From Deltaproteobacteria bacterium (GTDB lineage: Bacteria; Desulfobacterota; BSN033; UBA1163): DNA of 64,000 nucleotides. Below the pieces are notes generated by a model, which was not told the DNA's origin, ran no database searches, and saw only the letters and a list, made by a program, of their open reading frames with translations. The position numbers and the translations under genes were made by a program. Positions 3,273 through 63,052 of this stretch are shown here, piece after piece. The first letter of the stretch is position 1. Each line of letters opens with the position of its first letter. The stretch covers positions 1,026-65,025 of the forward strand of contig JBBIMX010000001.1 of NCBI GenBank assembly GCA_037444165.1. Direction: 5' to 3'.

Positions 3273-3602
3273 TTATCCTGTAATACTCACTTTTTTGGGT
3301 TCTTTTCCTCCAATTTTAATATCTATTCTTTCGGCCAGATCCTTGGATTTGGACTCAATTTCTTGAAGAAGGATCATCCTTTTTTCTCTCTCTCTCAAAA
3401 GATCATCAGCGATGTTGAGAGCGGTTAGAATGGCCACATTAAGAGTCGAAACACTCCGCGTCTTTTTCAGAATTTCCTCCGCTTTTTCATTCACGTATTT
3501 TGCAACCTCCTGGATATGACTCTCATTAGCGTCGGTCTTTACGGTATAGGTCTGTCCAAATACTTTAATCTCGACGGTTCTCTCCTTTCCCATCTCTCTC
3601 AC
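3273..3602 (-). CDS. zapA: cell division protein ZapA
   Basis: 109 aa with ZapA-like core (VKIFGQTYTVKTD...LNVAILTALNIADDL). Confidence 0.7.
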   Translation of the reverse strand: MREMGKERTVEIKVFGQTYTVKTDANESHIQEVAKYVNEKAEEILKKTRSVSTLNVAILTALNIADDLLREREKRMILLQEIESKSKDLAERIDIKIGGKEPKKVSITG

Positions 3603-3958: not shown

Positions 3959-5066
3959 TCAGTTTGTATTCGTATTCAGGAGATAGGTTTTCATGAACTC
4001 GTCAATTTCCCCATCCAAGACGCGATCCACCTGATAGATGACCTTATTGGTCCGGTGGTCTTTCACCATCTTATAAGGATGTAAAATGTAAGAACGAATT
4101 TGACTTCCCCAAGCGATCTCTTTCTTCGAATGATGAAGTTCTCGTAATTTTTCCTCCTTCTCCTTTCGTTCCTTCTCATAAAGTCTCGCCTTTAATATTT
4201 TTAAGGCCATCGCTTTATTTTTATGTTGGGAGCGTTCATTTTGGCATTGAACGACGATTCCGGTTGGAAGGTGAGTGATTCGGACGGCAGAATCCGTTTT
4301 ATTCACATGCTGCCCTCCTGCTCCACTCGAACGAAAGGTATCTATTCTCAAATCCTTTTCGTCAATCTCAATATCGATCTCTTCGGGAACCTCGGGAATC
4401 ACAAATACAGAGGCAAAGGAGGTATGTCGCCTCGCTCCTGCGTCAAAGGGAGAGATCCGAACCAATCGATGGATTCCCACTTCTGCCTTTAAATATCCAT
4501 AGGCATACTTACCATTTACGGTAAAGGTCACGTTCTTTATCCCCGCTTCCTCTCCAGGGAGGATATCCACAATTTGGGTTTGATATCCTTTCTTTTCGGC
4601 CCATCTCAAATACATTCTAAGAAGCATTTCAGCCCAATCCTGGGCCTCTGTCCCTCCTGCCCCTGCATTAATGCTCACGATCGCATTTCTCTCGTCATTT
4701 TCCCCCTTCAGCATTTGTCTAAATTCCATCTCATTGATGGCTTCTTCGTTCTGCTGAATTTTTTTAAGAAGTTCTTCGGCTTCCCTTTCATCATTCTGCT
4801 CCTCGATAAGTTGAAGAAGAACCTCCATCTCTTCAATTTCTTTTTTCTTCTCTTGCCAAGAGGATAGGCCTTCTAAAAGAGAATTCCTCTCTTTTAGAAT
4901 TTTTTGTGTCATCTCCCCCCCTTCCCAGAAATTAGGTTCTGACATCATCTTCCCAATCTCGTCTAATCGTTTCTCTTTTTTTTCGAGGTCAAAGATAGCC
5001 TCGCATTATCTCTAAACGATTATTTAACTCCTTCAATCGACCCTTAAGTTCAACAATCATTGCCAT
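3959..5066 (-). CDS. prfB: peptide chain release factor 2 (programmed +1 frameshift)
   Basis: The 329-aa ORF has the SPF motif and the GGQ motif ([21 protein letters not shown]). Upstream, a short frame reading [25 protein letters not shown] ends at the classic CTT TGA C shift site at 4994..4988 (minus). Confidence 0.9.
4988..4994 (-). other. RF2 programmed +1 ribosomal frameshift site CUU UGA C
   Basis: Minus-strand sequence ...GGCTATCTTTGACCTCGAA...; frame 0 stops at TGA and the +1 frame continues [23 protein letters not shown]. Confidence 0.85.
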
Positions 5067-5158
5067 CACCTACTTTATTGGAATGGATAATAAATTATTA
5101 ACATAAGTTGAGATAAAAGTTAAATAATTTTTATAACTTATTGAAATTACATAATATT

Positions 5159-11710: not shown

Positions 11711-14700
11711 TCAGTCGATGGCTGAATCGAGGACCACCAGATTCAGTCCCTTCTCAAAGTTCTGCTGCTGGGAAGCAGCGTTTCGACAGGCTACCACACA
11801 ACTGCCACACCCCTCACAAAGAGCATCAATCACCTCGGCCTTCCCTTCCTCATTGAGAACTCTCGCCCCATATGGACAAACCGTTACACAAAGCCCACAT
11901 CCGCAGCACAGCCTCGAAATCACATAGGCCCGATAAGGCTTCTCCTCAACCCTCTCCTTCGAAAGAATCGCAGCGGCTCGAGCCGCCACAGCATTGCCCT
12001 GGGAGATCGAATCCTCCATAAAATTGGGCGAATGACACAACCCACAAAAGAACTTCCCCCGTTCCAATCCATCCAGGGGTGCCGACTTCGGATTGGCCTC
12101 CTTAAAAAAACCATCCGAATTAAGCTCCAACCCAAAGACCTGAGCAAGGGATCGATGATCATTGGGCTCAATCCCTGTACTCAACACCAGCCGATCCGCC
12201 AAAAGATGGACCCGGCCCATCAACACAGGATCCACTACTGAAACCCAGAGCCTTCCTTCCTCCCTGATGACCTTCGGCTTCTCCTCCAACTCATACCGAA
12301 TAAATATCACTCCCTTTGCCCTCGCCTCATGATAATAGGTCTCGTAAAACCCATACGTTCTCACATCCCGATAAAGCACATAGACCCTCACCTCCGGCTT
12401 CCACTCCTTCAACCGAAGGGCGTTCTTGACCGCATGAGCACAACAGATCCGACTACAATAAGGATGCTCCTCATCCCTTGAACCCACACATTGAATCATC
12501 ACCACCGAGCGAAGATCCCCCAGGCCCTCATCCCGAACATGAATCGCCCTCTCAAACTCCCTCTGTGTCATCACCCGGGGATCCTCCCCGTATAGATACT
12601 CCTTCGGTCTTATCTCCCTGCCCCCTGTCGCAACAATCACCACTCCATGATCCACAGCCTCCTCGCCTTCCGAAGTCCCGATTCTCGTCCGATAGTGCCC
12701 ATCCTTCCTCTCACACCCCAACACCTCCGCCCCCAAAAAGAGATGGATCAAGGAATGACTCTTTATTTTATAAATAAGATCCTCAAGAAAAGGTTGAGGG
12801 TTCTCACCCCTTATTGTATAGAAGGCATTCCTCGCATTCCCCCCCAACTCCTTCTCCCTCTCTACCAGAAAGACCTCATATCCCTGCTCCGCTAACCGGA
12901 GAGAAGCCGTCATCCCAGCCACACCCCCTCCAACCACTAACCCCTTCCTCTCTATCCCATGACTTCCCCTCCGAAGAGGCTGAATCCTCCTGGCCCGCTC
13001 CACGGCCATCCGAATCAATGTGAAAGCTTTCTCCGTGGCCTCCCGTGGAAATCCCGAATGAACCAATGCACACTGCTCCCGAATATTCGCAAACTCAATC
13101 AGATAGGGATTAAACCCCATCCCCCTTGCCATCTCCTCTACCCTCTTCCGAATCTCCTTGGAAGACCCCCCCGCCACCACCACACGATTCAAACCCTGCT
13201 CCCCAATCTTTACCTTTATCGAATTAAGATCCTCATGCAAGGAGACCCGCTTCAGCTCTCCAACATAAACTACCTCTCGAAGCCCCCTGACCCTCTCCAC
13301 TAACTCCTCCATCAAAAGATTCTTCCTCAACTCCTCTCCCTGATCACAGATAAAAACCCCTATCCTCGGAATCTCCTCTCCCAGAGCCCCCTCCACAGGA
13401 TACTCCCTCTCCCTCCGGGAAGGAACAGAAGAAAGAAAAGACGCCACCATCGCCGCCACACTCGAACCCTCCACTACCGTCTCCGGGATGTCCCTGGGAC
13501 CCCGAAAGGCACCCCCGACAAAGACCCCATTGACCGAAGTCTCGGCCGGATAAAACTCCCCCGTTTCACAAAACCCCTGAAGATTCAACCGAACTCCCAA
13601 CCGATGAGCCAATTCCTTAATCCCTTGAGGAGGGGTGAATCCAACCGAAAGCACTACCGCATCAAACTGCTTCTCTTCAAACGTTCCATCCTCCTTCACA
13701 TACGTAATCAAAAGATCCTTCGATTGCTGAAGTTCTTTCACCGAAGAAACCGCACTCCTGATATACTCAATCCCATACTCCCTCTTCGCCCTCTCATAAT
13801 ACCGCTCATAGTCCTTCCCCATCGGCCGAATATCCATATAAAACACACTCACCCGTAAATCAGAAGCTCGATCCTTCGCCATCATCGCCTGCTTGGTCGC
13901 ATACATACAACAGATCGTCGAACAATGAGGCTGCCCCGAAGAAGGATCCCTCGAACCCACACACTGAATAAATGCCAACCTCTCTATCCTCCTCCCATCC
14001 GAAGGACGAATCGGATAACCCCCAGTCGGAGATGAGGTCGAAAGAAGCCTCTCAAACTGAATGCTCGTCATCACATTCCGATACCGACCAAACCCATACT
14101 CCCCCTTTCTCTGAGCCCAAAAAGGCTCAAACCCAAAACCCAGTACAATCGCCCCAACCTGAAGAACCTCCTCCTTCGCCTTCATCTCCAAATCAATCGC
14201 CCCAGGACCACACACCCTCACACACTCCCCACATCGAATACAACTTTTCGAATCGATCACAAGCCCATGAGGAATCGCCTGAGGAAAAGGTAAATAAATC
14301 GCCTTCCTCTTCTCCAACCCTCCCCCAAACTCCCTCTCCACCTCCACCGGACAAACCTCCATACAGGCCCCACAAAACGTACATCGCTCGGGATCCACAA
14401 ACCGGGGCTTCTGAAAAACCCTGACCCTGAAATCCCCTCCTTCCCCCTCCACCTCCTTCACCTCACAATAAGGAAATAACTCTATGTTCTCATGAAGACG
14501 ACTCTCATAAATGGGACAAAAAGCAGGAGGCGTGGGACTCATAAAACAGACCCCACAGGAATTGGTCGGAAACGTCCTGTCCAACAACGGGAAATAGCCC
14601 CCAATCGCAGGCGCCTGATCCAAAAGAAAAACCCTTCTGCCCATCTCTCCCAACAGAAGAGCCGCCTGCATCCCAGCTATCCCAGCACCCATCACTAATA

Positions 14701-14722
14701 CCGAACCCTTATCTCCCTTCAT
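11711..14722 (-). CDS. hdrA: heterodisulfide reductase subunit A, tandem-fused (short HdrA-like module plus full-length HdrA)
   Basis: 1003 aa; two FAD motifs (VLVMGAGIAGMQAALLL and LVVGGGVAGMTASLRL), two inserted ferredoxin cassettes, an internal HdrA N-terminal-type Cys domain (GVFICDQG...NIREQCALVH) and a C-terminal 2x[4Fe-4S] domain. The region is GC-richer than its neighbours. Confidence 0.8.
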   Translation of the reverse strand: MKGDKGSVLVMGAGIAGMQAALLLGEMGRRVFLLDQAPAIGGYFPLLDRTFPTNSCGVCFMSPTPPAFCPIYESRLHENIELFPYCEVKEVEGEGGDFRVRVFQKPRFVDPERCTFCGACMEVCPVEVEREFGGGLEKRKAIYLPFPQAIPHGLVIDSKSCIRCGECVRVCGPGAIDLEMKAKEEVLQVGAIVLGFGFEPFWAQRKGEYGFGRYRNVMTSIQFERLLSTSSPTGGYPIRPSDGRRIERLAFIQCVGSRDPSSGQPHCSTICCMYATKQAMMAKDRASDLRVSVFYMDIRPMGKDYERYYERAKREYGIEYIRSAVSSVKELQQSKDLLITYVKEDGTFEEKQFDAVVLSVGFTPPQGIKELAHRLGVRLNLQGFCETGEFYPAETSVNGVFVGGAFRGPRDIPETVVEGSSVAAMVASFLSSVPSRREREYPVEGALGEEIPRIGVFICDQGEELRKNLLMEELVERVRGLREVVYVGELKRVSLHEDLNSIKVKIGEQGLNRVVVAGGSSKEIRKRVEEMARGMGFNPYLIEFANIREQCALVHSGFPREATEKAFTLIRMAVERARRIQPLRRGSHGIERKGLVVGGGVAGMTASLRLAEQGYEVFLVEREKELGGNARNAFYTIRGENPQPFLEDLIYKIKSHSLIHLFLGAEVLGCERKDGHYRTRIGTSEGEEAVDHGVVIVATGGREIRPKEYLYGEDPRVMTQREFERAIHVRDEGLGDLRSVVMIQCVGSRDEEHPYCSRICCAHAVKNALRLKEWKPEVRVYVLYRDVRTYGFYETYYHEARAKGVIFIRYELEEKPKVIREEGRLWVSVVDPVLMGRVHLLADRLVLSTGIEPNDHRSLAQVFGLELNSDGFFKEANPKSAPLDGLERGKFFCGLCHSPNFMEDSISQGNAVAARAAAILSKERVEEKPYRAYVISRLCCGCGLCVTVCPYGARVLNEEGKAEVIDALCEGCGSCVVACRNAASQQQNFEKGLNLVVLDSAID

Positions 14723-14744
14723 CTCTCCCTCTCCATCCCATAGC

Positions 14745-15590
14745 TTATCCCAATCCCAAGGACTCCAACAAAGGCCTCGGAGAAATTAAATGCTTCCCCC
14801 ACCACCTCTCCCTCTGCCCAATATCAAAAGCGACCCCCATCAGCTCCGTAAAATAGAAGACCGGGAGACCTAACTCCTGCCTCATCTCCAAGTTCATCTG
14901 ACACAACCCACAGGAAGTAACAATCGCCTGAGCTCCAGCCTCCCTCGCCATAAAAACAATTCTCCCCACCATCTGCCTCACAATCGACCCATAGGTCATC
15001 GCTAAATCCGCCCCACAACAGTCCACCTTATAAGACCACTCCACAGGCTGAGCCCCAAGAACCCTCATCAGCCGATCCATCGATTGAGGGTTCTCAGGAT
15101 CATCAAACCTCGTCACCTTAGGATGCCGAACCAAAGCACAACCATAATAACAAGCCACCTTCAGCCCCTTGAGCGTCCTCCTCACCCTCTCATACACCCT
15201 CTCCAACCCAACCCGATTGACCACCACATCCAACAACGCCAAAATCTCCAGAGAAGGATCATACCTGAAACCCACAATCTCCTCGATCACCCTTCGATCC
15301 CTCTGCTCATTCCTGAGCACATACTCCGTCCTCTTCAAATTACTAAAACATCCTGCACAAGGAACCACCAATGAACTCAACCCGGAAAGAAGAGCCTTCG
15401 ATATAATCCTCGCAGGAAGACAAAGAGAAAGAAGACGATTCAAACTGTGAGTGGCCGCAGCCCCACAACAGTTCCAATCCTCCACCTCCACTAACTCCAC
15501 CCCCAACGCCTTAAAAACCTCCTCCGTCGAAAGCCCATACTCCATCGATGAAGAACGATCCGTACAACCAGGAAAATATGAAAACCGCAT
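14745..15590 (-). CDS. hdrB: heterodisulfide reductase subunit B (two CCG domains)
   Basis: MRFSYFPGC...DWNCCGA... and VDCCGADL CCG-domain signatures. Confidence 0.85.
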   Translation of the reverse strand: MRFSYFPGCTDRSSSMEYGLSTEEVFKALGVELVEVEDWNCCGAAATHSLNRLLSLCLPARIISKALLSGLSSLVVPCAGCFSNLKRTEYVLRNEQRDRRVIEEIVGFRYDPSLEILALLDVVVNRVGLERVYERVRRTLKGLKVACYYGCALVRHPKVTRFDDPENPQSMDRLMRVLGAQPVEWSYKVDCCGADLAMTYGSIVRQMVGRIVFMAREAGAQAIVTSCGLCQMNLEMRQELGLPVFYFTELMGVAFDIGQRERWWGKHLISPRPLLESLGLG

Positions 15591-15627
15591 CTCCTACCCT
15601 CCAAAAGGTCTAATTATGAATAATCCC

Positions 15628-16203
15628 TCACTCCCCTTGTCCACACCTCTCAAAAATCCTCCGAATCTCCTCCCTCGCCTTTACCATGCTCGGAAATAAA
15701 GGAAACTTCCCCTTGAAAAAAAGCCTCAATCCTGACCCCAATGAATCCCTCATCCAATCCCGACTCCTCAACACATAATCCATCAACATCGTCACCTCAT
15801 GAGCCCTCCCACCCCTCCTCACGCTCTGAATAAAAGCCTCATGAAAAAGATGAATCCTCTTCTCTTTCACCTCCACCCCTTCCTCCACCGCCATCTCCCT
15901 CAACGCATCCATCAATACCCCGATGTGAATCTCATTCGGACACCGCGTCCCACAAGTCTGACAATATACACAAAACCAGATTGCACCACTGCCCAAAACC
16001 TCCCCCCTCCTCCCCATCTGAATCATCCGAATCAACTGATTCGGCTTAATATCCATATAAGGAGCCGTCGGACAACCCGCCGTACACTTCATACACTGAT
16101 AACATAACTCCACCCGCTCCCCACTCCGACTCCTCACCTCCTCCAAGAAAAAAGAACTCTCCTCTATCCCCTTCAATCCCTTTTCCAATTTTTCCACCTC
16201 CAT
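15628..16203 (-). CDS. hdrC: heterodisulfide reductase subunit C
   Basis: CYQCMKCTAGCP and CVYCQTCGTRCP 4Fe-4S dicluster motifs; 191 aa. Confidence 0.8.
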   Translation of the reverse strand: MEVEKLEKGLKGIEESSFFLEEVRSRSGERVELCYQCMKCTAGCPTAPYMDIKPNQLIRMIQMGRRGEVLGSGAIWFCVYCQTCGTRCPNEIHIGVLMDALREMAVEEGVEVKEKRIHLFHEAFIQSVRRGGRAHEVTMLMDYVLRSRDWMRDSLGSGLRLFFKGKFPLFPSMVKAREEIRRIFERCGQGE

Positions 16204-16227
16204 TGTCGTTGTTCCCTTTTTAAATTT

Positions 16228-18237
16228 TTATATAAACGTATCGACCATCCGAAGGGTCTGGATCGATGAGGAATTTCTCAATTCACAGGCAAAATTAGGG
16301 CATGCAGCAATACAGGCTCCGCATCCCTGACAGAGGGCGCTGTGAACGACAGAGATTCCTCGCCGGAGGTCCATCTCCCTCGCTTCATAGGGACATATCT
16401 CAACACAAATTCCACAGCCACTGCAAATCGTCTCATCCACATAGGCGATGAGTGGGTCCTGAAAAAGTTTGTCTGTCGAAAGAAGGGCCTGGATCTTGCT
16501 GGCTGTGGCTGAAGCCTGAGAGACGGTGTCCGTGATATCCTTCGGGCCTTGTCCACAGCCTGCCAGATAGATCCCTCTAGTTGAACTTTCTACGGGATAG
16601 AGTTTAATATGGGCTTCTGTCAAAAATCCATGTTTATCAACGGTCGCTCTTAACTTGCTCGCAAGTTCTTTGACTCCTTCAGAGGGAATGATCGCCGTGG
16701 CCAGGACAACCAAATCCGCACCAATCTCTACCCTCTTTCCGGTCAGGGTATCCACGCCCCACACCTTTACTTTTCCATCCTCCTGAAAAATCCTTGAGAC
16801 ACGTCCCCTGAGATAGAGAATCCCATTCTCTTCAATCGTCTTCTGAAGGAACTCCTCGTAACCCTTTCCGTCCGAACGAATGTCCATATAAAAGACATAA
16901 GGTTGACCATCCGGAACCTGTTTTTTATAAATCGTTGCCTGTTTTGCCGTATACATGCAGCAAATTCTTGAACAGTAAGGCATATAACGATCAGGATCCC
17001 TCGAGGCTACGCATTGAATAAAAACCATCTCTTTCGGAACCCTTCCATCAGAAGGTCGCTGGATTCTTCCCCGGGTAGGTCCATCGGGAGATAACATCCG
17101 TTCAAAGGTAAGCCCATCGATGACATCCGGAATCTCCCCATATCCATATTCTCCTAACTTTTCATTAGGGAAAAGGTCAAATCCAGTCGCTACCACGATA
17201 GCTCCAACCTTTCTTTCGATCTTCTCCTCCTTTTGATCGAATTGAATCGCTCTCTGGGGACAAACCTCTGCGCATCTTCCGCAGCTTCGGTCTTTGAAGT
17301 ATGGGCATTGAGTCGAAGAAAGGAAAACTCGTCGGGGAATACAATGGGGGTAAAGAAAATCAATGGCCTTTCTCACCCCCAACCCTCTTTCAAATGGAGA
17401 AGGGTACTCGATGGGGCAGACTTCGATACAGAGACCACATCCATTACACCGGGTCCAATCCACATAGGTAGTCTTTTTTCGCAGCCCTATCTCAAAATTT
17501 CCTATATACCCTTTTACCTCTTCCACTTCGGAGTAACAAAAAAGTTCGATCTTCGGATGAGCCTCTATTTCGGAGGCCTTGGCGAGGAGACCGGGGAATG
17601 CTGGAGAAAGCTCTGGAAAGGTTTTCGAGAGTTGAGCCATATGTCCTCCCAGGGCTGGAGATTTCTCAACCAGAATCACTTCATATCCCCCCTGGGCAAG
17701 GTCAAGGGAGGCTGTCATTCCTGCAATTCCTCCTCCAATCACCAACACATTTCTGTGGAGGCTCATGGCCAGGGGTTCGAGCTTCTCGTTTCTTCTCACT
17801 TTCTCTAAGGTCGCTTGAATGATCTGCAGGGCCTTCCGGGTCGCCTCCTCTTTCTCCTTTTGATGAACCCAGCTACACTGCTCCCGAATATTGGCGATCT
17901 CACAGAGATAGGGGTTCATTCCTGCTGTCTTCACCGCTTTACGAAAAGTATTTTCATGCATACTCGGCGAGCAACAGGCGACGACCACTCCATCAAGCCT
18001 TTTCTCCTGAATCGCCTCTCGGATGAGCTGTTGACCGGGCTCTGAACACATATAGATGTAGTCCACACTATGGCAAACATCCTCGGTTCGACCAATCTCT
18101 TCGGCCACCCTTTTTACATCGACTGTACCGGCAATATTCACCCCACAATGACAGATAAAAACTCCCAGCTTTTTCATAGCCCATTCCAGCGGGTTTATAT
18201 TAATCTCCGACCTCGTTACCCTCTCACCGGTCTCCAT
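16228..18237 (-). CDS. hdrA: heterodisulfide reductase subunit A (full length)
   Basis: 669 aa; N-terminal Cys domain (GVFICHCG...CSWVH), FAD motif (VLVIGGGIAGMTASLDLA), inserted ferredoxin and C-terminal 2x[4Fe-4S] domain. The start may be the internal MKKLGVF at 18177. Confidence 0.85.
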   Translation of the reverse strand: METGERVTRSEININPLEWAMKKLGVFICHCGVNIAGTVDVKRVAEEIGRTEDVCHSVDYIYMCSEPGQQLIREAIQEKRLDGVVVACCSPSMHENTFRKAVKTAGMNPYLCEIANIREQCSWVHQKEKEEATRKALQIIQATLEKVRRNEKLEPLAMSLHRNVLVIGGGIAGMTASLDLAQGGYEVILVEKSPALGGHMAQLSKTFPELSPAFPGLLAKASEIEAHPKIELFCYSEVEEVKGYIGNFEIGLRKKTTYVDWTRCNGCGLCIEVCPIEYPSPFERGLGVRKAIDFLYPHCIPRRVFLSSTQCPYFKDRSCGRCAEVCPQRAIQFDQKEEKIERKVGAIVVATGFDLFPNEKLGEYGYGEIPDVIDGLTFERMLSPDGPTRGRIQRPSDGRVPKEMVFIQCVASRDPDRYMPYCSRICCMYTAKQATIYKKQVPDGQPYVFYMDIRSDGKGYEEFLQKTIEENGILYLRGRVSRIFQEDGKVKVWGVDTLTGKRVEIGADLVVLATAIIPSEGVKELASKLRATVDKHGFLTEAHIKLYPVESSTRGIYLAGCGQGPKDITDTVSQASATASKIQALLSTDKLFQDPLIAYVDETICSGCGICVEICPYEAREMDLRRGISVVHSALCQGCGACIAACPNFACELRNSSSIQTLRMVDTFI

Positions 18238-19572
18238 TTAATGTGTTGCAAAGAGGGCTTGAACCTTGCTTGCGGCGGCATTGGCATGGGCAACCGTCTC
18301 GGCAATATCTTTTGGTCCTTGGGCACACCCTGCCAGATAAATCCCCTCCTGATTGGTCTCTACTGGTTTCAGCTTCCTCTCTGCCTCTGTCAGAAACCCA
18401 TATGAATCGCTATGAATCCCCAATATTTGAGCCAGCGTCTTTGTTTCTTGATGAGGGACGATCGCTGTTGCCAGGACAACCAGATCGGCTAAGACTTCAA
18501 CCTTTTTCCCTGTGAGGGTATCTACCCCCCAAACCACAATTTTTTCTCCTTCACGAAAGATCCTCGAAACTCGTCCTCTCAAGTAGAGAATCCCTTCTTC
18601 CATCGTTTGTTGAATAAACTCTTCATATCCTTTTCCTGTGGATCGAATATCCATATAGAAGATGTAGACCTGACCATCATGAACCTTGTGTTTATAGAGC
18701 CGGGCATGTTTTGCTGTATACATACAACAGACCCTTGAACAATAAGGCATGTATCGCTCTGGATCCCTTGAGCCGGTACACTGGATAAAGACCACCTCTT
18801 TGGGTATCCTTCCATCCGAAGGTCTTCGGATCTCCCCGTTTGTGGGTCCAGAGGCCGAGTTCAATCTCTCAAAGGAAAGCCCATCAATCACATCTGGAAT
18901 CTCCCCATATCCATATTCCCCAAATCGCTCTACAGGCATCAAATCAAATCCAGTGGCGACGACAATGGCTCCAACCTTTTCCTCAATCAACCGATCTTCC
19001 TGTTGATAATGGATTGCCCCCACGGGGCAGATTTTTTCACACACCCGACATTTCTTCTCCAAAAAATACCGACAGTGTTCAGGGTTGATAACCGGTTTAT
19101 TAGGAACAGCCTGAGGAGAGAGGGTATAGATGGCCTTCCCAAGACCCATCCTTCGATCAAATTCAGAGGGGTATCTGGAAGGACATTTCTGTTGACAAAG
19201 ACCACACCCTGTACACTTTTCCCAATCGACATAGGCTGCTTTCTTACGAATCTGGACAGAAAAATTTCCAGCTCGTCCCGCTACTCTCACCACTTCGGAA
19301 TAGGTGTGAAGTCGAATTCGTGGGTGCTGACCTGTCTCTACGGTCTTTGGGGTCAGGGTGCACTGGGCACAATCAAGAGTAGGAAAGGTTTCGGAAAGCT
19401 GAAGCATATGGCCACCGATGGAGGGTAATCTCTCTATTAGGAGGACTTCATATCCTGCATTCCCAATGTCAATGGAAGCGGTGATCCCAGCGATTCCCCC
19501 ACCTATGACCATTGCCCTTTTAATAAAACCATTCTCAGAAGTACCCATCTCTATTTTATTCTCGCCTCCCAT
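18238..19572 (-). CDS. hdrA: short HdrA-like flavoprotein (QmoA-like, lacking the N- and C-terminal ferredoxin domains)
   Basis: 444 aa; FAD motif (MVIGGGIAGITASIDIG) and inserted ferredoxin (CTGCGLCQQKCP, CRVCEKICP). Clearly paralogous to the 669-aa HdrA; PYCSR[IV]CCMYTAK and YLRGRVSRIF are conserved in both. Confidence 0.8.
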   Translation of the reverse strand: MGGENKIEMGTSENGFIKRAMVIGGGIAGITASIDIGNAGYEVLLIERLPSIGGHMLQLSETFPTLDCAQCTLTPKTVETGQHPRIRLHTYSEVVRVAGRAGNFSVQIRKKAAYVDWEKCTGCGLCQQKCPSRYPSEFDRRMGLGKAIYTLSPQAVPNKPVINPEHCRYFLEKKCRVCEKICPVGAIHYQQEDRLIEEKVGAIVVATGFDLMPVERFGEYGYGEIPDVIDGLSFERLNSASGPTNGEIRRPSDGRIPKEVVFIQCTGSRDPERYMPYCSRVCCMYTAKHARLYKHKVHDGQVYIFYMDIRSTGKGYEEFIQQTMEEGILYLRGRVSRIFREGEKIVVWGVDTLTGKKVEVLADLVVLATAIVPHQETKTLAQILGIHSDSYGFLTEAERKLKPVETNQEGIYLAGCAQGPKDIAETVAHANAAASKVQALFATH

Positions 19573-19595
19573 AAGGAAGGGAGATCGAATTGAAG

Positions 19596-20465
19596 TTAAA
19601 CCAATCCTTTCCTTTTTAAGAGGGGGATTGGGTCTACCGCATTCTGCTCGAACCCTAAGGTTTGAGGTTCAAGTCCCATCGCTACTCCAAGGAGTTGGGT
19701 AAAATAGAGTACGGGAATCGTTTTAAAATCTAAATGGGCCTTAAGGATATCAGACTGTTTTTGATCCAGATTAAAGGTACAGAGTGGACAGGTCGAAACG
19801 ATGACTTCAGCTCCCTGCCTCATTGCAGAGGTGAGAATTCGATAGGCACATTCCGTAGCCACCTCCGGAGTGCCCACGGATTGAAACGACCCACAGCATT
19901 CTATCTTATAAGGAAAATCGATGGATCTGGCGCCCAAGGCAGTCAAAAATTCTTCAAAGAGGGTTGGCCTTTCTTTATCATCAAAACCCATCTCTTCAAA
20001 TGGACGCAGAAGCATGCAACCGTAATACGGTGCGGCTTGAAGTTCATTCAGAGGTTTTTTCACTCTTTCCTGAATGGTTGAAAAACCAATCTCCTGTTTC
20101 AAAATTTCGAGGTAGTGTAAGACTTTCAGGTCGCCCTGATAATTCATCTCGATAAATTGATTGATCTTTTCCCGTTTCTCACCATCCTTCTGGATTAAAT
20201 GATTCGTCCTTTTAATGACGTTAAAACAGATCGCACAAAGGGTGGTCAGGACTTCTCCCTGCTCTTTTGCCCGGGCTAAAATTCTCGCAGGAGGGAGAAG
20301 GGCCATAAGGTTATCTGTGGCCAGCGGGAAAGTGGCTCCACAACAAGTCCAGTTTGGAAGTTCCACGAGTTCAAATCCAAGGAGAAGGGAACAGTTTCGA
20401 GCTGTTTGATCAAAGTTTTTTGCTTTCGTGTAAAGGGTGCATCCTGGGAAATAGAGATAATTCAT
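19596..20465 (-). CDS. hdrB: heterodisulfide reductase subunit B
   Basis: MNYLYFPGCT...NWTCCGA and IECCGS CCG motifs. Start set at the internal methionine. Confidence 0.8.
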   Translation of the reverse strand: MNYLYFPGCTLYTKAKNFDQTARNCSLLLGFELVELPNWTCCGATFPLATDNLMALLPPARILARAKEQGEVLTTLCAICFNVIKRTNHLIQKDGEKREKINQFIEMNYQGDLKVLHYLEILKQEIGFSTIQERVKKPLNELQAAPYYGCMLLRPFEEMGFDDKERPTLFEEFLTALGARSIDFPYKIECCGSFQSVGTPEVATECAYRILTSAMRQGAEVIVSTCPLCTFNLDQKQSDILKAHLDFKTIPVLYFTQLLGVAMGLEPQTLGFEQNAVDPIPLLKRKGLV

Positions 20466-20536
20466 AAGCACTCCGAAATGGCATAGGACAGAGGACATCG
20501 CACGGAATAAGAAAAACCCTATGCCCTTTGCTTGGG

Positions 20537-36501: not shown

Positions 36502-37026
36502 ATGGCGAAAAAGCATAACGATCTTCTCCATCTCCGTATAGGTTGGGTCTTATTAGTCTTTTTTCTTCTATTTTCAAATTGCTCAAAGAAGCCTGTAGAA
36601 TCATCCCTGGCACCCGATTTTTCCTTAAAAACACTCCGCGACGAGCAGATCACCCTTTCGGCTTTGAGGGGAAAGGTGGTGCTTCTCGATTTCTGGGCTA
36701 CCTGGTGTAGCCCCTGCAAGGAGTCAATCCCCCATCTCATTCAAATTCACAAGGATTTCCAAGCAAAGGGGTTTGAGGTGATTGGTCTGAGCATGGATCG
36801 GGGGGATGAGAGAATCGTTCGCAATTTTATAAATACGATGAATATCCCCTATCCCGTCCTGATTGCCCCAGATGATCTGGCCAAGAGGTATGGAGTGAAA
36901 GGACTTCCTACCACCTTTTTGATCGATAGAGAAGGAAAAATTCGAGAAAAAATCGTTGGATTCAATATCTCTATTGCCCAAAAGATGGTGGGTAAAATCT
37001 CCCAGCTCCTCTCGGAAACACCCTGA
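36502..37026 (+). CDS. TlpA/ResA-like thiol-disulfide oxidoreductase (secreted or lipoprotein)
   Basis: N-terminal hydrophobic signal and a WATWCSPCK thioredoxin-fold motif. Confidence 0.8.
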   Translation: MAKKHNDLLHLRIGWVLLVFFLLFSNCSKKPVESSLAPDFSLKTLRDEQITLSALRGKVVLLDFWATWCSPCKESIPHLIQIHKDFQAKGFEVIGLSMDRGDERIVRNFINTMNIPYPVLIAPDDLAKRYGVKGLPTTFLIDREGKIREKIVGFNISIAQKMVGKISQLLSETP

Positions 37027-57952: not shown

Positions 57953-58876
57953 TTATTTATTAAAAATTGGAACAGTGGCGGTCCCTCGAAGCACTTTTTC
58001 TCCCCGTTGATTCTTAACTAGGATGTCCAATATTAAAGAAACTTCTTTTTCTTTGGTTTTCCTTTCTTTGACTTGTATTCGGGTTCGCGCCGTATCTCCG
58101 GGTCTTAAGGGATGAAGAAATTGAATGTCCATTTCACCATGGTGGACCCATTCCCAAGGGAAAACGGCCATCAATGATTCAGAAATATAAGCCACACTCA
58201 TTAACCCATGGGCAATGATCCCTCCAAAAGGGGTGGATCTTGCATATTCCTCATCCACATGGATTGGATTTCCAATTCCCAGGATTTCTTCATACTGTTT
58301 AATTTTCTCTATGGTGATTCTCTTTATCAAAGAGGGAAGGGAATCACCGATTTTCCATTCTTGAGTGGGTGAAATGGAACTATGGGTGATTGGGAGGGGT
58401 TGACTTTTAAATGGTGACATCTTTGAGGTTTGACTCTTTTTAACTTCCTTTTCTAAATTTTTCCATACCGAAGTGGATTCGCTCCATACCACAAGTTCTC
58501 CGCGTTGATTCCTGCTGTGGCTAGTGAAAGTGAGGAACCAATCCCCCGCTTTCTTTACTTTTTGAGTAAGCTCCGCTTGAATCGTGATCTGGTCTCCTGG
58601 GTACATGGGTCCATAAAATCTGAATTTTTGTTGGAGATGGATTCCTCCAGGCGAAGGATTCCAATCAGTTCGATAGGCCTTCAAAATAAATAAACTTGCA
58701 ATAGTAGGAGGGGCGATGATTCCCCCAAAAGGACCGGAGGAGGCTTTTGATGAATCTCTATGAAAGAAATTGAAGTCCTCCACCACATTTACATATTTAA
58801 AAATTATCTCTTCGGAAATAGAATATAAGAGAGGCGAGAAGCGACGACCCACAGGGATCTGTTTAAAAAAGTCCAA
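57953..58876 (-). CDS. MaoC-like (R)-specific enoyl-CoA hydratase/dehydratase, double hot-dog
   Basis: 307 aa with two MaoC-like halves. Confidence 0.7.
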   Translation of the reverse strand: MDFFKQIPVGRRFSPLLYSISEEIIFKYVNVVEDFNFFHRDSSKASSGPFGGIIAPPTIASLFILKAYRTDWNPSPGGIHLQQKFRFYGPMYPGDQITIQAELTQKVKKAGDWFLTFTSHSRNQRGELVVWSESTSVWKNLEKEVKKSQTSKMSPFKSQPLPITHSSISPTQEWKIGDSLPSLIKRITIEKIKQYEEILGIGNPIHVDEEYARSTPFGGIIAHGLMSVAYISESLMAVFPWEWVHHGEMDIQFLHPLRPGDTARTRIQVKERKTKEKEVSLILDILVKNQRGEKVLRGTATVPIFNK

Positions 58877-59291
58877 TATTTTCTTTCCCCTTTCTCCCCA
58901 TTAGATAATCATCCAAATTCCGAGAGCAAGAGCTTTGAAGTACATCACGACAAAGCGAATAGGCTCCGAAAAGATCTAAACGGTCGAGAATAGGAGACCC
59001 AACCCTAGATCCTGAAAGGGCAATAAGAACCAGTGCTATTGGGCCGATATCTGAATAACAATGAGAGGCCTCTGCCCGAAGACGGAGTGAGTTGAAGGCC
59101 TTTGCCCTCTTTACTTCAAAGCGTGAGACAATAACAATCGCAATAAGGATAGCGGATAAACTAAAGAAAGAAAAGTAGAAATGATTTGGGATTAAGGGCC
59201 TTTCTACCTTGAAAACATTAAGGGTTGCTGCAGAGATACATCGGTCTTTATTAGATGCAAGAGAGAAATGGACCATCCCCATTAAATCCAC
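58863..59291 (-). CDS. hypothetical small membrane protein (questionable)
   Basis: 142-aa ORF filling an otherwise 420-nt gap; two hydrophobic segments and no recognisable family. Confidence 0.25.
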   Translation of the reverse strand: MDLMGMVHFSLASNKDRCISAATLNVFKVERPLIPNHFYFSFFSLSAILIAIVIVSRFEVKRAKAFNSLRLRAEASHCYSDIGPIALVLIALSGSRVGSPILDRLDLFGAYSLCRDVLQSSCSRNLDDYLMGRKGKENIGLF

Positions 59292-59299
59292 CCTTTTTC

Positions 59300-60690
59300 T
59301 CAGCTCTTGTCGCCATGGACTCTTTCCTGATGGAGTTTCTTTCCGGCTTGCTCGGCTGCAATTAAAATTGGGTCTAAAGGGGCAGAAAAAGGAGGTGCAT
59401 AAGCAAAATCGAGTCTCGAAATTTCATCGATCGTCATTTTTTGATGGAGAGCGACTGCCAATGCATTGATCCTCCTCGCCACCCCCTCCTTGCCCGCCAT
59501 CTGAGCTCCTAATAGTCTCCCATTTCTCTGATCAAAGATTAACTTAATGAGCATTCTTTTTGATCCAGGCATATATCCCACCTTTGATTCAGCTTCAATC
59601 ATCTGTGACTCCGCATCGAAACCGTATCGCTTGGCAACTTGAAAGCCTAAACCTGTAAAGGCGACCTCCAGTTCAAATACCTTGAAAGCAGCCGATCCCA
59701 CCACTCCATGAAATGTGGCTTTACCCCCTGCAGCATTTTCGCCCGCGACCCTTCCCTGTTTATTGGCAATATCTCCCAATGGGGTATGGACCCAATCTTG
59801 GCTTATTAGATTAAAGACTTCACAACAATCTCCTGCCGTATAGATATCTTTAAGATTTGTCTTTTGAGAAAAATCCGTCCTTATCGCTCCTGTCTTTCCA
59901 AGCTCAATCCCTGCCTCTCGGGCCATTTCAACATTAGGCACTACACCGATAGCCATCAGGACCATATCCGTAGAATACTCTCCTTTTGTGGTTTCAACAG
60001 ACGTCACTTCTCCATGGCCATTTAGATGAAAGGCTACGGGTTCTTGATTGGGGAGGAAGTGGACTCCACTTTCTTGAAGCTCCTTCAATATCCTTTCTGA
60101 GATCTCTCTTTCAAGATTTCCAGCCGGTAAGTCCCTACGACAGAATAAAAAGGTTTCTATCCCCCTCGATCTGAAAGCTTCGCACATCTCAAGGCCAATA
60201 AACCCTCCTCCAAGGACAGAAACCCGTTTAGGTCTTGTTTCATCTATATAGGTTTTGATACGGATCCCATCTTGAATATCCTTCAGGGTGAAAATGTTCA
60301 TGGCATTGCTTCCAGGAAGGTTGAGACGTCTGGATCGGCCCCCAGTAGCAATGATGAGTTTGTCGTAAGAAAAACATTGAGTTTCGGATTTGGATAGGTC
60401 AATGACTTCGATTCTTTTCTCTTGCGGATCAATTTGAGTCACCCGATGTTCTATCAGAACATCGATATCCTGCATCTCTTTAAATTGTTGTGGGGTTCGA
60501 ACTATCAATTTTTTTTGATCTTTGATTACATCACCGATGTAATAAGGAGTTTCTCAGGATCCATAGGATATAAATCTTCCCTGCTCGAACAGGGTAACTT
60601 CCAGCTCAGGATTGACTCGCTTGGCTCGGGCCGCTGCACTGGGACCTGCCGCTGAACCTCCAATAATAAGAAGTTTCTCTTTTCTTGGCA
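59300..60690 (-). CDS. FAD-dependent pyridine nucleotide-disulfide oxidoreductase (CoA-disulfide reductase / NADH oxidase family); probable selenoprotein with an apparent N-terminal 1-nt frameshift
   Basis: ATG at 60690 with an AGGAG ribosome-binding site. A canonical N-terminus MPRKEKLLIIGGSAAGPSAAARAKR is recovered only if one G is restored near 60660. An in-frame TGA at 60556..60554 aligns with the catalytic Cys of CoADR (SFANCALPYVIG versus SYGS-U-ETPYYIG). An 8-bp stem-loop (ATTACATCggtGATGTAAT) starts 11 nt downstream. The remaining 402-aa ORF is typical of this family. Confidence 0.6.
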
Positions 60691-60747
60691 TATTCCACTC
60701 CTTCCCTTTAAACTCGATGATTATTCAAACCCAACTTATTGAGTTAA

Positions 60748-60787
60748 CTTCCCATGACCGCTTTGTCACCCACAAACGATAAAAATC
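60748..60787. repeat. roughly 40-nt dispersed repeat, copy 2
   Basis: cttcccatgaccgctttgtcacccacaaacgataaaaatc; lies in the prx-CoADR intergenic region, 58 nt upstream of the CoADR-like start. Confidence 0.5.
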
Positions 60788-60863
60788 ATTTTCAGGGTAC
60801 CCTTTTCCCTTCCCCTCTTCTTCATCCTAAATATTTACGAAAAGAAGAGAGGAAGGGAAATAA

Positions 60864-61586
60864 TTAAAAAGCCATCTCTGGTTTCCAGACCTTCCATACC
60901 TTCCCTGCTAAGTCAGGACCGGGTTTCAAGGTTGGTTTTCCTGGCTGCCAACCAGAAGGCATGACCTCTCCTGTGGCACGTACATGTTGAAAGGCTTTGA
61001 TCTGTCTGATCAGTTCAGTCACATTTCGCCCTACTGGTGGGGTTAATATCTCCATGGCCTGAATGATCCCATCCGGATCAATTAAAAACCGACCTCGAAT
61101 ATCTACCCCTACCTCCTCATCATATACCCCATAAACTTTGCCAATCCGGCCACCACTGTCTGAAAGCATTGGAAATGGAACTCCACCAGGGACCATTTTC
61201 GAGAGTTCCTCTTCCTGCCAAATCTTATGAGTAAATCGGCTATCCGTACTTAGCGAAATCACCTCTACTCCAAGAGACTTAATCTCATTGTATTTGGCGG
61301 CAACTGCCGACAATTCTGTTGGTCAAACGAATGTGAAATCACCAGGATAAAAACAGAGAATCACCCACTTTCCCCTATAATCCGAAAGTTTAATATTTTT
61401 GAATCCTCCATCTATATAAGCACTTGCCTCGAAATCAGGGGCTGGCTTCCCAACTTGAGCTATCACTTTAAACTCCTCCCTTCTTATTGGACTTGGATAA
61501 GGGGTTTCAGTCTCAGGAACAATCGGTCCCTTTGCCGGCTCTACACACGAATCTTTAGCCTCTCCCATTGGCATTCCTCCTTTCAT
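60864..61586 (-). CDS. 2-Cys peroxiredoxin (AhpC/Prx1 family), selenocysteine-containing
   Basis: The two ORFs 61323..61586 and 60864..61313 are one frame-continuous gene interrupted only by TGA at 61325..61323. This gives ...[35 protein letters not shown]..., placing the TGA exactly at the peroxidatic Cys of the FTFVCPTE motif. A resolving-Cys-region homolog lies downstream. Confidence 0.75.
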
Positions 61587-61658: not shown

Positions 61659-62738
61659 TTATGCGGTGGTAAAGGTGTAACGCGTTCCCGCCGTATTGAT
61701 GATAAATTGCTTGGGCATCTCCCTTTCAAACATGGTCACGGCTTCCCACCCCGTACAATGCATGGGAATGATATAGTCTGGATTTATAGCCTTCATCTCT
61801 GCTACGGTACTTTGAATTTTGGCTATCGGAGCTCCGATTAAATGGAATCCTCCTATGACGACATGAACCTTATCGATTCCAGTCATCTTCTGAGCGTGTT
61901 TTACGGTGTTGACGATTCCTGCATGGGCACAGGAAGACAAAACGACCAACCCTTTTCCTTTAACGTTAAATACGACGGACTGCTCTCCCATGAACAGATC
62001 CAGTTCCATTTTATCTCCTCGTTTAATAAATAGAATCGGAGATCCTTTCTCATATTCTGTAACCCTTTCTATATTTCCTGTTAAATAAGCCCCAGGAACA
62101 ATTGGAGTGGGCTCCTTAATCTCTATAATCTTGACCCAATTGAGCGCTTCTATTTCCTCCCGCTTCAATTGTCCCAGATCCTGCATACCACTCGGGTCAT
62201 AGCGCCCAGCAGGAAGATTGGCAAACCGACGATGAAAAGTTTCTTCCCCAACGTAAAGGGGTATGCCCTTCCTGATTTTCGTCCTATTATGTTTGAGAAT
62301 GGCGATGAGATTCCCCCAATGGTCGAAGTGACCATGGCTGATACCCATGGCCTCTAACTTGTTCAGATCCAAGTTAAGGAGCTCTATATTCTTACTCACT
62401 CCTTGAAAATCCAAACCATAATCAAACATGAAGGCATAAGATTTACCATCCATCCATGTCTCGATGTAGTAAGACAAACCGTGCTCGGCATGAAATGACG
62501 AGTCAGGACCGATCATATATCGTTTAACCATTTTAAAATCGGGAGGATATAAATTCCACCTTAAACAATCGTAATAATTGTCTGTTATCACGGTGATCAC
62601 TAATTTTTCAATCTCCGGAATTTTAACAGCACCATAAGCCACTGTAGCACCTCCTTTCAAAGCATCGCCTGCCATTAACATTGCCCCTGTTACAACCGAT
62701 GTTTTTAAAAATTCCCTGCGGTTCATCTCTTTTAACAT
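61659..62738 (-). CDS. MBL-fold metallo-hydrolase with Tat signal
   Basis: MLKEMNRREFLKTSVVTGAML twin-arginine leader and an HGHFDH metallo-beta-lactamase motif. Confidence 0.7.
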   Translation of the reverse strand: MLKEMNRREFLKTSVVTGAMLMAGDALKGGATVAYGAVKIPEIEKLVITVITDNYYDCLRWNLYPPDFKMVKRYMIGPDSSFHAEHGLSYYIETWMDGKSYAFMFDYGLDFQGVSKNIELLNLDLNKLEAMGISHGHFDHWGNLIAILKHNRTKIRKGIPLYVGEETFHRRFANLPAGRYDPSGMQDLGQLKREEIEALNWVKIIEIKEPTPIVPGAYLTGNIERVTEYEKGSPILFIKRGDKMELDLFMGEQSVVFNVKGKGLVVLSSCAHAGIVNTVKHAQKMTGIDKVHVVIGGFHLIGAPIAKIQSTVAEMKAINPDYIIPMHCTGWEAVTMFEREMPKQFIINTAGTRYTFTTA

Positions 62739-63052
62739 AACTCCCACCTCCTTCATGAATTGGTTTTGAGGGTTAAGGAGTAAGGGAAAAAACTTACCCC
62801 TAAAACTGCCTATCCCACCCTGTGGGCACACCAACTTCAAACCCTTTACTCGAATCCTATTTTAGATGAGCCCTCACCTCCTTTCATCACTCCTGTAAGC
62901 CCTTTTAATCTCATCCTCAGACGCATTTCGATTGAGACCCAAGATCTGATCATAATCTTTTCGGTGCACTCTTAAACCCCTCAAGAGGTCCACGGCCCCC
63001 TAATTGATCCCTCAGGGGGATCCCACTGAAAAAGCAGAATGCCTGTTTGCCA

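Follow-up and report, generated by a model that had tools for sequence, protein, structure and literature searches.

Organization of the flavoprotein gene

The window analyzed here, a 64,000-nucleotide stretch of contig JBBIMX010000001.1 (assembly GCA_037444165.1, Deltaproteobacteria bacterium), carries on its minus strand a gene for a flavoprotein that resembles CoA-disulfide reductases (CoADR), NADH oxidases (Nox) and NADH peroxidases (Npx), with an in-frame TGA at the position of the catalytic Cys and a hairpin shortly downstream of it. Its upstream neighbor is a gene for a PrxU-type selenoperoxiredoxin. Comparison with homologous loci argues that the in-frame TGA of the flavoprotein gene would be read as selenocysteine (Sec, U), making the product a selenoflavoprotein. 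The features of the locus are collected in Table 1.

The span of the gene is 1392 nt, exactly 464 codons. On the minus strand, the frame runs from ATG 60691..60689 to the in-frame TGA at 60556..60554 and then through 417 further codons to the TGA stop at 59302..59300. A first-pass annotation of this DNA had placed a 1-nt N-terminal frameshift near 60660, attributing it to an assembly indel or to a recent inactivating mutation. The frameshift is absent, because the N-terminus that supposedly needed a restored G is already encoded: a 45-amino-acid open reading frame (ORF) in the mechanical ORF list (60554..60691, minus strand) directly specifies MPRKEKLLIIGGSAAGPSAAARAKRVNPELEVTLFEQGRFISYGS in the same frame as the remainder of the gene, and no G is missing near 60660. 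The relatives whose contigs include this region have the same N-terminus with its IIGGSAAG motif, in the same frame and without an indel. A 1-nt deletion on top of the TGA, whether as an assembly error or as a recent inactivation, therefore has next to no probability; we found nothing in its favor, and the single open frame from ATG 60691 through TGA 60554, with its canonical N-terminus, refutes it directly. The gene is intact, neither frameshifted nor truncated.

Table 1. Coordinates of the features described in the text (window positions unless a contig is named)
Feature	Position	Strand	Remarks
Predicted selenoflavoprotein coding sequence, complete	59300..60691	-	463 codons, predicted Sec = codon 46, TGA stop; single frame
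Shine-Dalgarno sequence AAGGAG	60698..60703	-	6 nt upstream of ATG 60691..60689; read from sequence
GxGxxG dinucleotide-binding motif for FAD (IIGGSAAG)	60644..60667	-	codons 9-16, in frame; site of the frameshift proposed earlier
Predicted Sec46 codon, TGA	60554..60556	-	opposite the flavin-proximal redox Cys of Nox/CoADR/Npx
TGA stop of the gene itself	59300..59302	-	no hairpin after the stop
Putative bSECIS core hairpin	60525..60543	-	8-bp stem AUUACAUC/GAUGUAAU, GGU loop, within codons Y50-I56
3-bp lower extension of the hairpin, CUU...AAG	60520..60546	-	2-nt bulge; from the MFE fold of the window sequence, weakly supported
PrxU-type selenoperoxiredoxin gene, upstream neighbor	60864..61586	-	Sec-TGA 61325..61323 within FTFV-U-PTEL
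Hairpin downstream of the PrxU UGA	61294..61310	-	4 G-C pairs plus outer stem, AGUU loop
19-nt inverted repeat	60804..60860	.	arms 95% complementary, spacer of 19 nt; directly downstream of the PrxU stop, no U-tract
Fur-family gene, example	L113 3523..3984		directly upstream of the Sec-flavoprotein gene

Conservation of the in-frame TGA

Homologous loci were compared in two sets. The species-representative set comprised 80 loci (2 close relatives, 14 Sec loci of a second clade and 64 Cys loci), and the close-clade set comprised 80 sequences (the window, two close genome loci and 77 of 80 metagenome loci). Together these gave 93 Sec genes, 79 from the close clade and 14 from the second clade. 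Within the species-representative set, a TGA occupies exactly the same position in both close relatives (79-85% identity) and in the 14 second-clade loci. The latter, from Syntrophales, Smithella, Syntrophus and Acidobacteriota metagenome-assembled genomes (MAGs), are 41-46% identical and carry the motif AA-U-P[MT]PYYIGDVI. The remaining 64 loci have TGT or TGC instead, mostly within AN-C-GLPYY. A Cys codon without TGA in close relatives had been named beforehand as the finding that would speak against Sec; what we observed in the close clade was a TGA in 79 of the 80 sequences, that is, in all 79 intact ones.

The exception is contig L151, which has an apparent TGG. We considered and rejected a Sec-to-Trp change, since in this contig the C-terminus of PrxU runs directly into the flavoprotein sequence from codon 47 on, with a CCTG(G/A)GAAAC microhomology at the join. 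The junction, at about nt 3400..3500, reflects an assembly chimera or else a genuine deletion in which the flavoprotein lost its N-terminus.

The coding constraint is equal on both sides of the TGA. For the relatives compared with the window, codons 6-45, upstream of the TGA, gave proportions of nonsynonymous (pN) and synonymous (pS) differences of 0.074 and 0.656, with a ratio of the corresponding rates (dN/dS) of about 0.053, and the 400 codons after the TGA gave a dN/dS of 0.067. The constrained upstream piece includes the GxGxxG motif for binding flavin adenine dinucleotide (FAD). The 120 best matches among 5.8 billion database proteins (78-91% identity, GenBank MAG annotations included) are all 383-404 amino acids long and start just after the TGA, the N-truncated annotation to be expected where gene callers end a frame at a UGA; this signature is a further independent line of evidence for a Sec codon.

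TGA terminates 14 of the 43 long ORFs in the window, including the flavoprotein gene itself, which indicates that it is a normal stop codon in this organism and has not been reassigned. The window also contains prfB, and with it the classical site of UGA-dependent +1 frameshifting, CTT TGA C. The main prfB ORF (3959..4948, with PCRF and RF-1 domains) lacks the N-terminus, and the site, ...GGCTAT CTT TGA CCT... at 4987..4993 on the minus strand, is a genuine programmed frameshift. When the window was searched systematically for in-frame TGAs that join long ORFs, only those of the flavoprotein and PrxU genes were credible. A third Sec gene was considered at the abutting HdrA-like ORFs 18238..19572 and 16228..18237 and rejected, because the stop that separates them is TAA, and these are thus two genes.

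A conserved hairpin downstream of the UGA

The perfect 8-bp stem with a GGU loop reported earlier 11 nt after the TGA is indeed present. Ten unpaired nucleotides follow the UGA, the stem starts at the 11th, and the loop starts 18 nt after the UGA. The current model of the bacterial selenocysteine insertion sequence (bSECIS) calls for an apical loop of 3-9 nt, an upper stem of 4-16 bp, a G in the first two loop positions, a distance of 16-37 nt from UGA to loop, and a minimum free energy (MFE) of -7.5 kcal/mol or lower (PMC13188914). The 3-nt GGU loop, the 8-bp stem and the 18-nt distance all agree with this geometry (PMC13188914), and energy is the sole item on which the window's own variant, with a U-A pair at one position, falls short. 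The significance of the hairpin lies in comparative data, not in its energy.

Across the 68 distinct Sec-type sequences compared, which come from both clades, 99.6% of cells in the 8-bp helix are paired. At pair 15-31, 44 sequences have C-G, 23 have U-A and one has U-G, and none is unpaired; on a rough neighbor-joining tree this pair has changed state at least 9 times. The switch links a synonymous change in a Tyr codon (UAU/UAC) to an Ile/Val replacement (AUH/GUN). The other third codon positions within the stem are nearly frozen (C18 and U27 in 68/68, C21 and A30 in 65/68), while the third position of the loop Gly codon varies freely among all four bases. All eight pairs form in 91 of the 93 Sec genes versus 5 of the 64 Cys genes, and the mean MFE is -8.7 kcal/mol for the former versus -2.5 kcal/mol for the latter; an MFE of -7.5 kcal/mol or lower is reached by 74/93 and 1/64, respectively. 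The Cys homologues average 5.9 of 8 stem pairs. With a geometry that fits the bSECIS model and a helix that is conserved and covaries, the SECIS-like character ascribed to the hairpin by the first-pass annotation is well supported by comparative sequence evidence.

Two Cys (TGT) genes are nested within the second Sec clade, in L004 (near nt 5067) and L012 (near nt 2629). Both keep PYYIGDVI, and in both GAC for Asp disrupts the stem beside the loop. These hairpins resemble the SECIS remnants reported where Sec has been converted to Cys (PMC1794560), and the two genes look like Sec-to-Cys reversions with a decaying SECIS.

The lower extension of the hairpin listed in Table 1 was rejected as part of the element, since its middle pair, 12-36, is unpaired in 36 of the 68 sequences. 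Rfam gave no match in the window at gathering thresholds. In E-value mode, a search of 60400..61400 returned chance matches only (miRNA precursor models and the like), mostly on the intergenic palindrome, and no SECIS family.

Family assignment of the product

For domain and structure searches, the product was translated with Cys substituted for the TGA. Pfam identified Pyr_redox_2 (5.9e-58), Pyr_redox (2.8e-17) and Pyr_redox_dim (3.5e-15); the protein thus has the Pyr_redox_2 plus Pyr_redox_dim architecture, and the predicted Sec occupies its one redox position next to the flavin. Among solved structures, the NADH oxidase of Thermus thermophilus (PDB 6RUZ; residues 6-449, E=1.7e-103) is closest; further matches are A. 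fulgidus NoxA-3, the CoA-disulfide reductases of B. anthracis and P. horikoshii, a CoA-persulfide reductase, related FAD-dependent pyridine nucleotide-disulphide oxidoreductases, and NADH peroxidase. In these enzymes the redox Cys aligns with residue 46 (SYGS-U-ETPYY in the window, SYGA-C-GLPYV in 6RUZ, SFAN-C-GLPYY in 3ICR), so the alignment of the TGA with the CoADR/Nox catalytic Cys that had been proposed earlier holds in both structures. On these alignments, we regard the predicted fold and redox position as certain.

The window protein and 6RUZ share the domain order, the SYG-x-[C/U] redox context and AYAPPFS at the C-terminus. They differ in that 6RUZ has Cys rather than Sec, and Gly-Leu after the redox residue where the window protein has Glu-Thr. 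The second Rossmann beta-strand of 6RUZ ends in Glu (LLE), whereas that of the window protein ends in Cys-Arg-Arg (FLFCRRD); compared with the LLE of NADH-using relatives, this hints at a preference for NADPH. The CoA-disulfide reductases (B. anthracis 3CGB/3ICR, P. horikoshii 4FX9, S. aureus 1YQZ), the CoA-persulfide reductase 8A56 and the FAD-dependent pyridine nucleotide-disulphide oxidoreductase 3NTA resemble the window protein in having a single redox-active residue and no CxxxxC pair. Of the NCBIfam models, the CoADR equivalogs TIGR03385 and NF007123 match the window protein best. However, the Asn that precedes the redox residue in these reductases (F-A-N-C) is replaced by Ser or Ala in the window gene and the Sec clades. 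The Enterococcus faecalis NADH peroxidase (1JOA/1NHP) and the H2O-forming NADH oxidases have the same fold and redox position, but the peroxidase is more distant from the window protein (E about 1e-63).

Mammalian thioredoxin reductase is also an FAD/NAD(P)H flavoprotein with a catalytic Sec. In that enzyme a CxxxxC pair lies beside the flavin, the Sec is in a C-terminal GCUG tail, and the SECIS is in the 3'-UTR (untranslated region). In the window gene, by contrast with this general picture, the predicted Sec itself is flavin-proximal and the putative SECIS lies inside the coding region.

A selenoprotein family named 'NADH oxidase / CoA-disulfide reductase' has already been listed for bacteria (PMC1794560, PMC9312934, PMC13188914), with Geobacter metallireducens WP_011365774.1 as its representative and UGxP as its published motif (PMC9312934, PMC13188914, both of which credit the family to an earlier reference). 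It accounted for 1 of 285 bacterial selenoproteins in a 2006 census and, separately, for one sequence from the Olavius Delta-1 symbiont (PMC1794560, PMC1976440). The likeness to the window gene is close: the same superfamily (COG0446/TIGR03385-like), Sec in place of the single redox Cys beside FAD, and occurrence in anaerobic Thermodesulfobacteriota, both being known from comparative genomics only (PMC1794560 Tables 1 and 3, PMC9312934, PMC13188914). The published U-G-x-P corresponds to U-E-T-P in the window clade and to U-P-M/T-P in its sister Sec clade; the Pro at +3 is kept, and the Gly at +1 is replaced by Glu (Pro in the second clade). Against the Cys-type AN-C-GLP, the window gene reads GS-U-ETP. 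The Geobacter form is compared with the window clade here by its published motif. The earlier reference for the family is reportedly the prokaryotic selenoproteome study of Kryukov and Gladyshev from 2004. By its sequence, then, the window gene is assigned as a new member of an already known selenoprotein family, in a distinct U-E-T-P subclade that is abundant in sediment and digester metagenomes.

PrxU and the context of the locus

The upstream peroxiredoxin scores 396.5 bits with the NCBIfam PrxU model NF040737 (cutoff 270), with U at the peroxidatic position, which bears out the earlier observation that a Sec-peroxiredoxin gene is adjacent. A TGA is found at this position in 29 of 29 PrxU homologues from related loci, and the hairpin downstream of the window's PrxU UGA is a probable PrxU SECIS. 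The window PrxU has EVMPSGW at what we take to be the place of the resolving Cys in typical 2-Cys peroxiredoxins, and it would therefore need an external reductant. PrxU is found on the same strand upstream of the flavoprotein gene in 24 of the 45 close-clade loci whose upstream sequence spans at least 2 kb. No PrxU linkage was found for the second Sec clade among the fetched loci.

The flavoprotein ATG is preceded in 41 of 63 loci of the close clade by a gene for a Fur-family regulator (150 amino acids), the end of which lies within 150 nt of it, mostly at 19-41 nt. The regulator matches PF01475 (5e-31), and its best NCBIfam match is a PerR model, at 82.6 bits and below cutoff. This gene is absent at the window locus and in the nearest relatives (L081-L083), and no homologue occurs anywhere in the 64-kb window. 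In the window and in L081-L083, where the Fur-family gene is absent, a conserved inverted repeat occupies the spacer instead. In the window the spacer measures 172 nt from the PrxU stop to the flavoprotein ATG and contains the 19-nt repeat; in L081-L083 the differences in the arms preserve pairing and the loops differ. The repeat could be an mRNA-stabilizing or terminator hairpin, or an operator.

A MOSC-domain gene and a gene for a metallo-beta-lactamase-fold protein with a twin-arginine translocation (TAT) signal recur near the flavoprotein gene in related loci. In the window, 61659..62840 (minus strand), upstream of PrxU, encodes a protein of 393 amino acids that carries a TAT signal and weakly matches the metallo-beta-lactamase fold, and its homologues or paralogues flank the flavoprotein gene on either side in many related loci.

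Interpretation and alternative explanations

Our preferred interpretation, to which we assign a probability of roughly 0.88, is that the gene is intact and translated, and that its product is an FAD flavoprotein of homodimer type, from the single-redox-Cys branch of the pyridine-nucleotide:disulfide oxidoreductases (CoADR/Nox/Npx group), in which Sec replaces the flavin-proximal catalytic Cys. The claim of Sec at this position, made in the first-pass annotation, gains support from the Sec/Cys pairing among homologues, the conservation of the TGA, the equal purifying selection on its two sides and the covariation of the hairpin. Translation would start at ATG 60691. At the UGA, a SelB-type elongation factor bound to the hairpin 10 nt downstream would deliver Sec-tRNA(Sec), and the ribosome would continue to the real TGA stop. 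In the enzyme, NAD(P)H would reduce FAD, and FAD would in turn reduce oxidized Sec46, which may be joined to CoA or some other small thiol as a selenenyl-sulfide or may exist as a selenenic acid. The selenolate would then reduce the substrate, possibly a disulfide or persulfide, or else peroxide or O2. Selenium incorporation, the nucleotide preference, the substrate and the link to PrxU are what we infer from these comparisons.

A number of observations weigh against this interpretation. The hairpin of the window has an energy of -6.4 kcal/mol (ViennaRNA), weaker than the -7.5 cutoff, and the z-score of the 91-nt local fold is -0.21, no better than that of shuffled sequences. Part of the hairpin comes with the protein sequence, because the peptide YYIGDVI inherently encodes a near-palindrome, and the five Cys homologues with all eight pairs belong here as well. 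The residue after the predicted Sec is Glu and not the Gly of the published motif. None of the NCBIfam models reaches its cutoff for the window's clade: the best, the CoADR equivalog TIGR03385, which is the model cited for the family, gives E=5e-126 and 420.9 bits (cutoff 578.8), followed by the CoADR equivalog NF007123 with 412.3 (cutoff 458), NF010037 (CoA-disulfide reductase, EC 1.8.1.14), a further test, with 276.3 (cutoff 394), and NF046103 (Nox; H2O-forming NADH oxidase / NADH peroxidase) with 274.7 (cutoff 600). With the CoADR and Nox equivalogs all below their cutoffs, the substrate is less certain than the fold and the redox position. Pfam scans of 50 window ORFs detected no SelA, SelB or SelD, and ARAGORN predicted no tRNA at all for the window, nor a tRNA-Sec for any of the fetched relative loci; selA, selB, selD and a tRNA-Sec gene are thus missing from the 64-kb window and from the fetched flanks of relatives, which were the scope of these searches. 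The PrxU gene, as a second Sec-type gene in the window, gives indirect support for such machinery in the genome. Finally, the literature searched contained no experimental demonstration of selenium incorporation for any member of the selenoflavoprotein family.

Could the TGA be a real premature stop, leaving a pseudogene or split gene that yields only a 45-amino-acid peptide and/or an N-truncated protein of ~400 amino acids from TTG 60508? The uniform truncation of the 120 best database relatives is what one would expect, and no Sec machinery is seen in the 64-kb window. However, such a product would have neither the catalytic residue nor the FAD-binding fold with its GxGxxG motif. Purifying selection acts on the 45 upstream codons as it does on the remainder of the gene (dN/dS 0.053 versus 0.067), the TGA is kept in 93 genes from two clades that are only about 45% identical, and a covarying hairpin would not persist. 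We consider this explanation very improbable. Hardly better placed is readthrough of the UGA without selenium, by a near-cognate Trp or Cys tRNA or another kind of non-Sec recoding, with the hairpin as a readthrough stimulator or a by-product of the YYIGDVI codons. It could appeal to Sec machinery not having been demonstrated in the window or the fetched loci and to the near-palindromic peptide, with which Cys homologues still average 5.9 of 8 pairs. Yet readthrough of this kind does not sit well with the bSECIS geometry of the hairpin (PMC13188914), with synonymous stem positions that are frozen next to a free loop position, or with a redox Cys at this position in all other homologues, the classic signature of Sec. 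Moreover, the neighboring PrxU gene has a like TGA at its peroxidatic Cys position in 29/29 homologues, and few bacteria are as rich in selenoproteins as the Thermodesulfobacteriota, Syntrophus among them, with 19 in Syntrophus aciditrophicus (PMC1794560, PMC13188914); the named relatives of the window gene are Syntrophaceae and Thermodesulfobacteriota MAGs.

For the function of the predicted Sec enzyme, the main alternative to a CoA-dependent disulfide or persulfide reductase is an NAD(P)H peroxidase or oxidase that reduces peroxide or O2 through a Sec-selenenic acid, like the Cys42-SOH of Npx. NADH peroxidases and oxidases cycle via Cys-SOH, and an equivalent Se-OH cycle is chemically plausible; selenenic acid also resists irreversible over-oxidation. 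The closest solved structure, 6RUZ, was deposited as an NADH oxidase, and the context of PrxU and a Fur/PerR-like gene is one of oxidative stress. The CoADR models, on the other hand, score far above the Nox model (421 and 412 versus 275 bits), a basic AARAKR stretch appears to resemble the CoA-phosphate-binding region of CoADRs, and the GGSAAG motif is without a His where, we presume, Npx and Nox have the sulfenate-stabilizing His10. We regard the peroxidase or oxidase as the less probable function, with a probability clearly below one-half. The higher CoADR scores and the basic stretch would favor CoA-linked chemistry. The gene context (PrxU, and the Fur/PerR-like gene in most relatives) points to a role in oxidative-stress defense in an anaerobic Syntrophales-type bacterium; it favors a role against oxidants that is compatible with CoA-linked chemistry.

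A more speculative proposal, which we think rather unlikely as a whole, joins two ideas: that the Sec-flavoprotein and PrxU form a PerR-type-regulated two-selenoprotein NAD(P)H peroxidase couple, and that a latent SECIS encoded by the peptide eases Cys-to-Sec conversion. If so, the couple would be functionally analogous to AhpF/AhpC, and a CoADR-like enzyme would recycle the selenenic acid of PrxU, either directly by Se-Se or Se-S exchange or via CoA-SH. The latent hairpin of YYIGDVI (UAY UAY AUH GGN GAY GUN AUH) would pre-adapt the enzyme family to repeated Cys-to-Sec conversion, and the Cys forms in L004 and L012 would be reversions inside a Sec clade.

Whatever the substrate of the Sec-flavoprotein, the annotation of the gene as frameshifted or truncated is corrected, and with it a systematic gap comes to light, in that the 120 best public relatives are called N-truncated 'FAD-dependent oxidoreductases' without the FAD-binding motif and the catalytic residue. 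A rarely seen selenoprotein family would gain a large clade of the Syntrophales type whose active-site motif differs, and the locus supplies what appears to be a clean coding-region SECIS backed by covariation. PrxU and the Fur/PerR-like regulator offer a testable context for the use of selenium against oxidants by strict anaerobes. As a selenoprotein gene it is ordinary in kind, and no new kind of system is revealed.

Other features of the window

Between the flavoprotein gene and an enoyl-CoA hydratase gene, 57953..59291 (minus strand) holds a gene for a double-hotdog MaoC-like dehydratase (307 amino acids) and an unannotatable hydrophobic ORF of 142 amino acids. In L081-L083, which are 94-95% identical, the hydratase gene directly follows the flavoprotein gene, and the difference is therefore a strain-specific indel of about 1.25 kb. 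A 2-kb Logan contig (L161) shares the window's arrangement.

A large cluster at 11711..20498 (minus strand) encodes HdrA-like FAD/4Fe-4S proteins (1003, 669 and 444 amino acids), CCG-domain HdrB-like proteins and ferredoxin-like proteins; it adds no evidence on selenoproteins. At 36502..37026 (plus strand) lies a gene for a TlpA/ResA-like thiol:disulfide oxidoreductase with a WCSPC motif; it is a Cys-containing member of a family that has Sec in some deltaproteobacteria.

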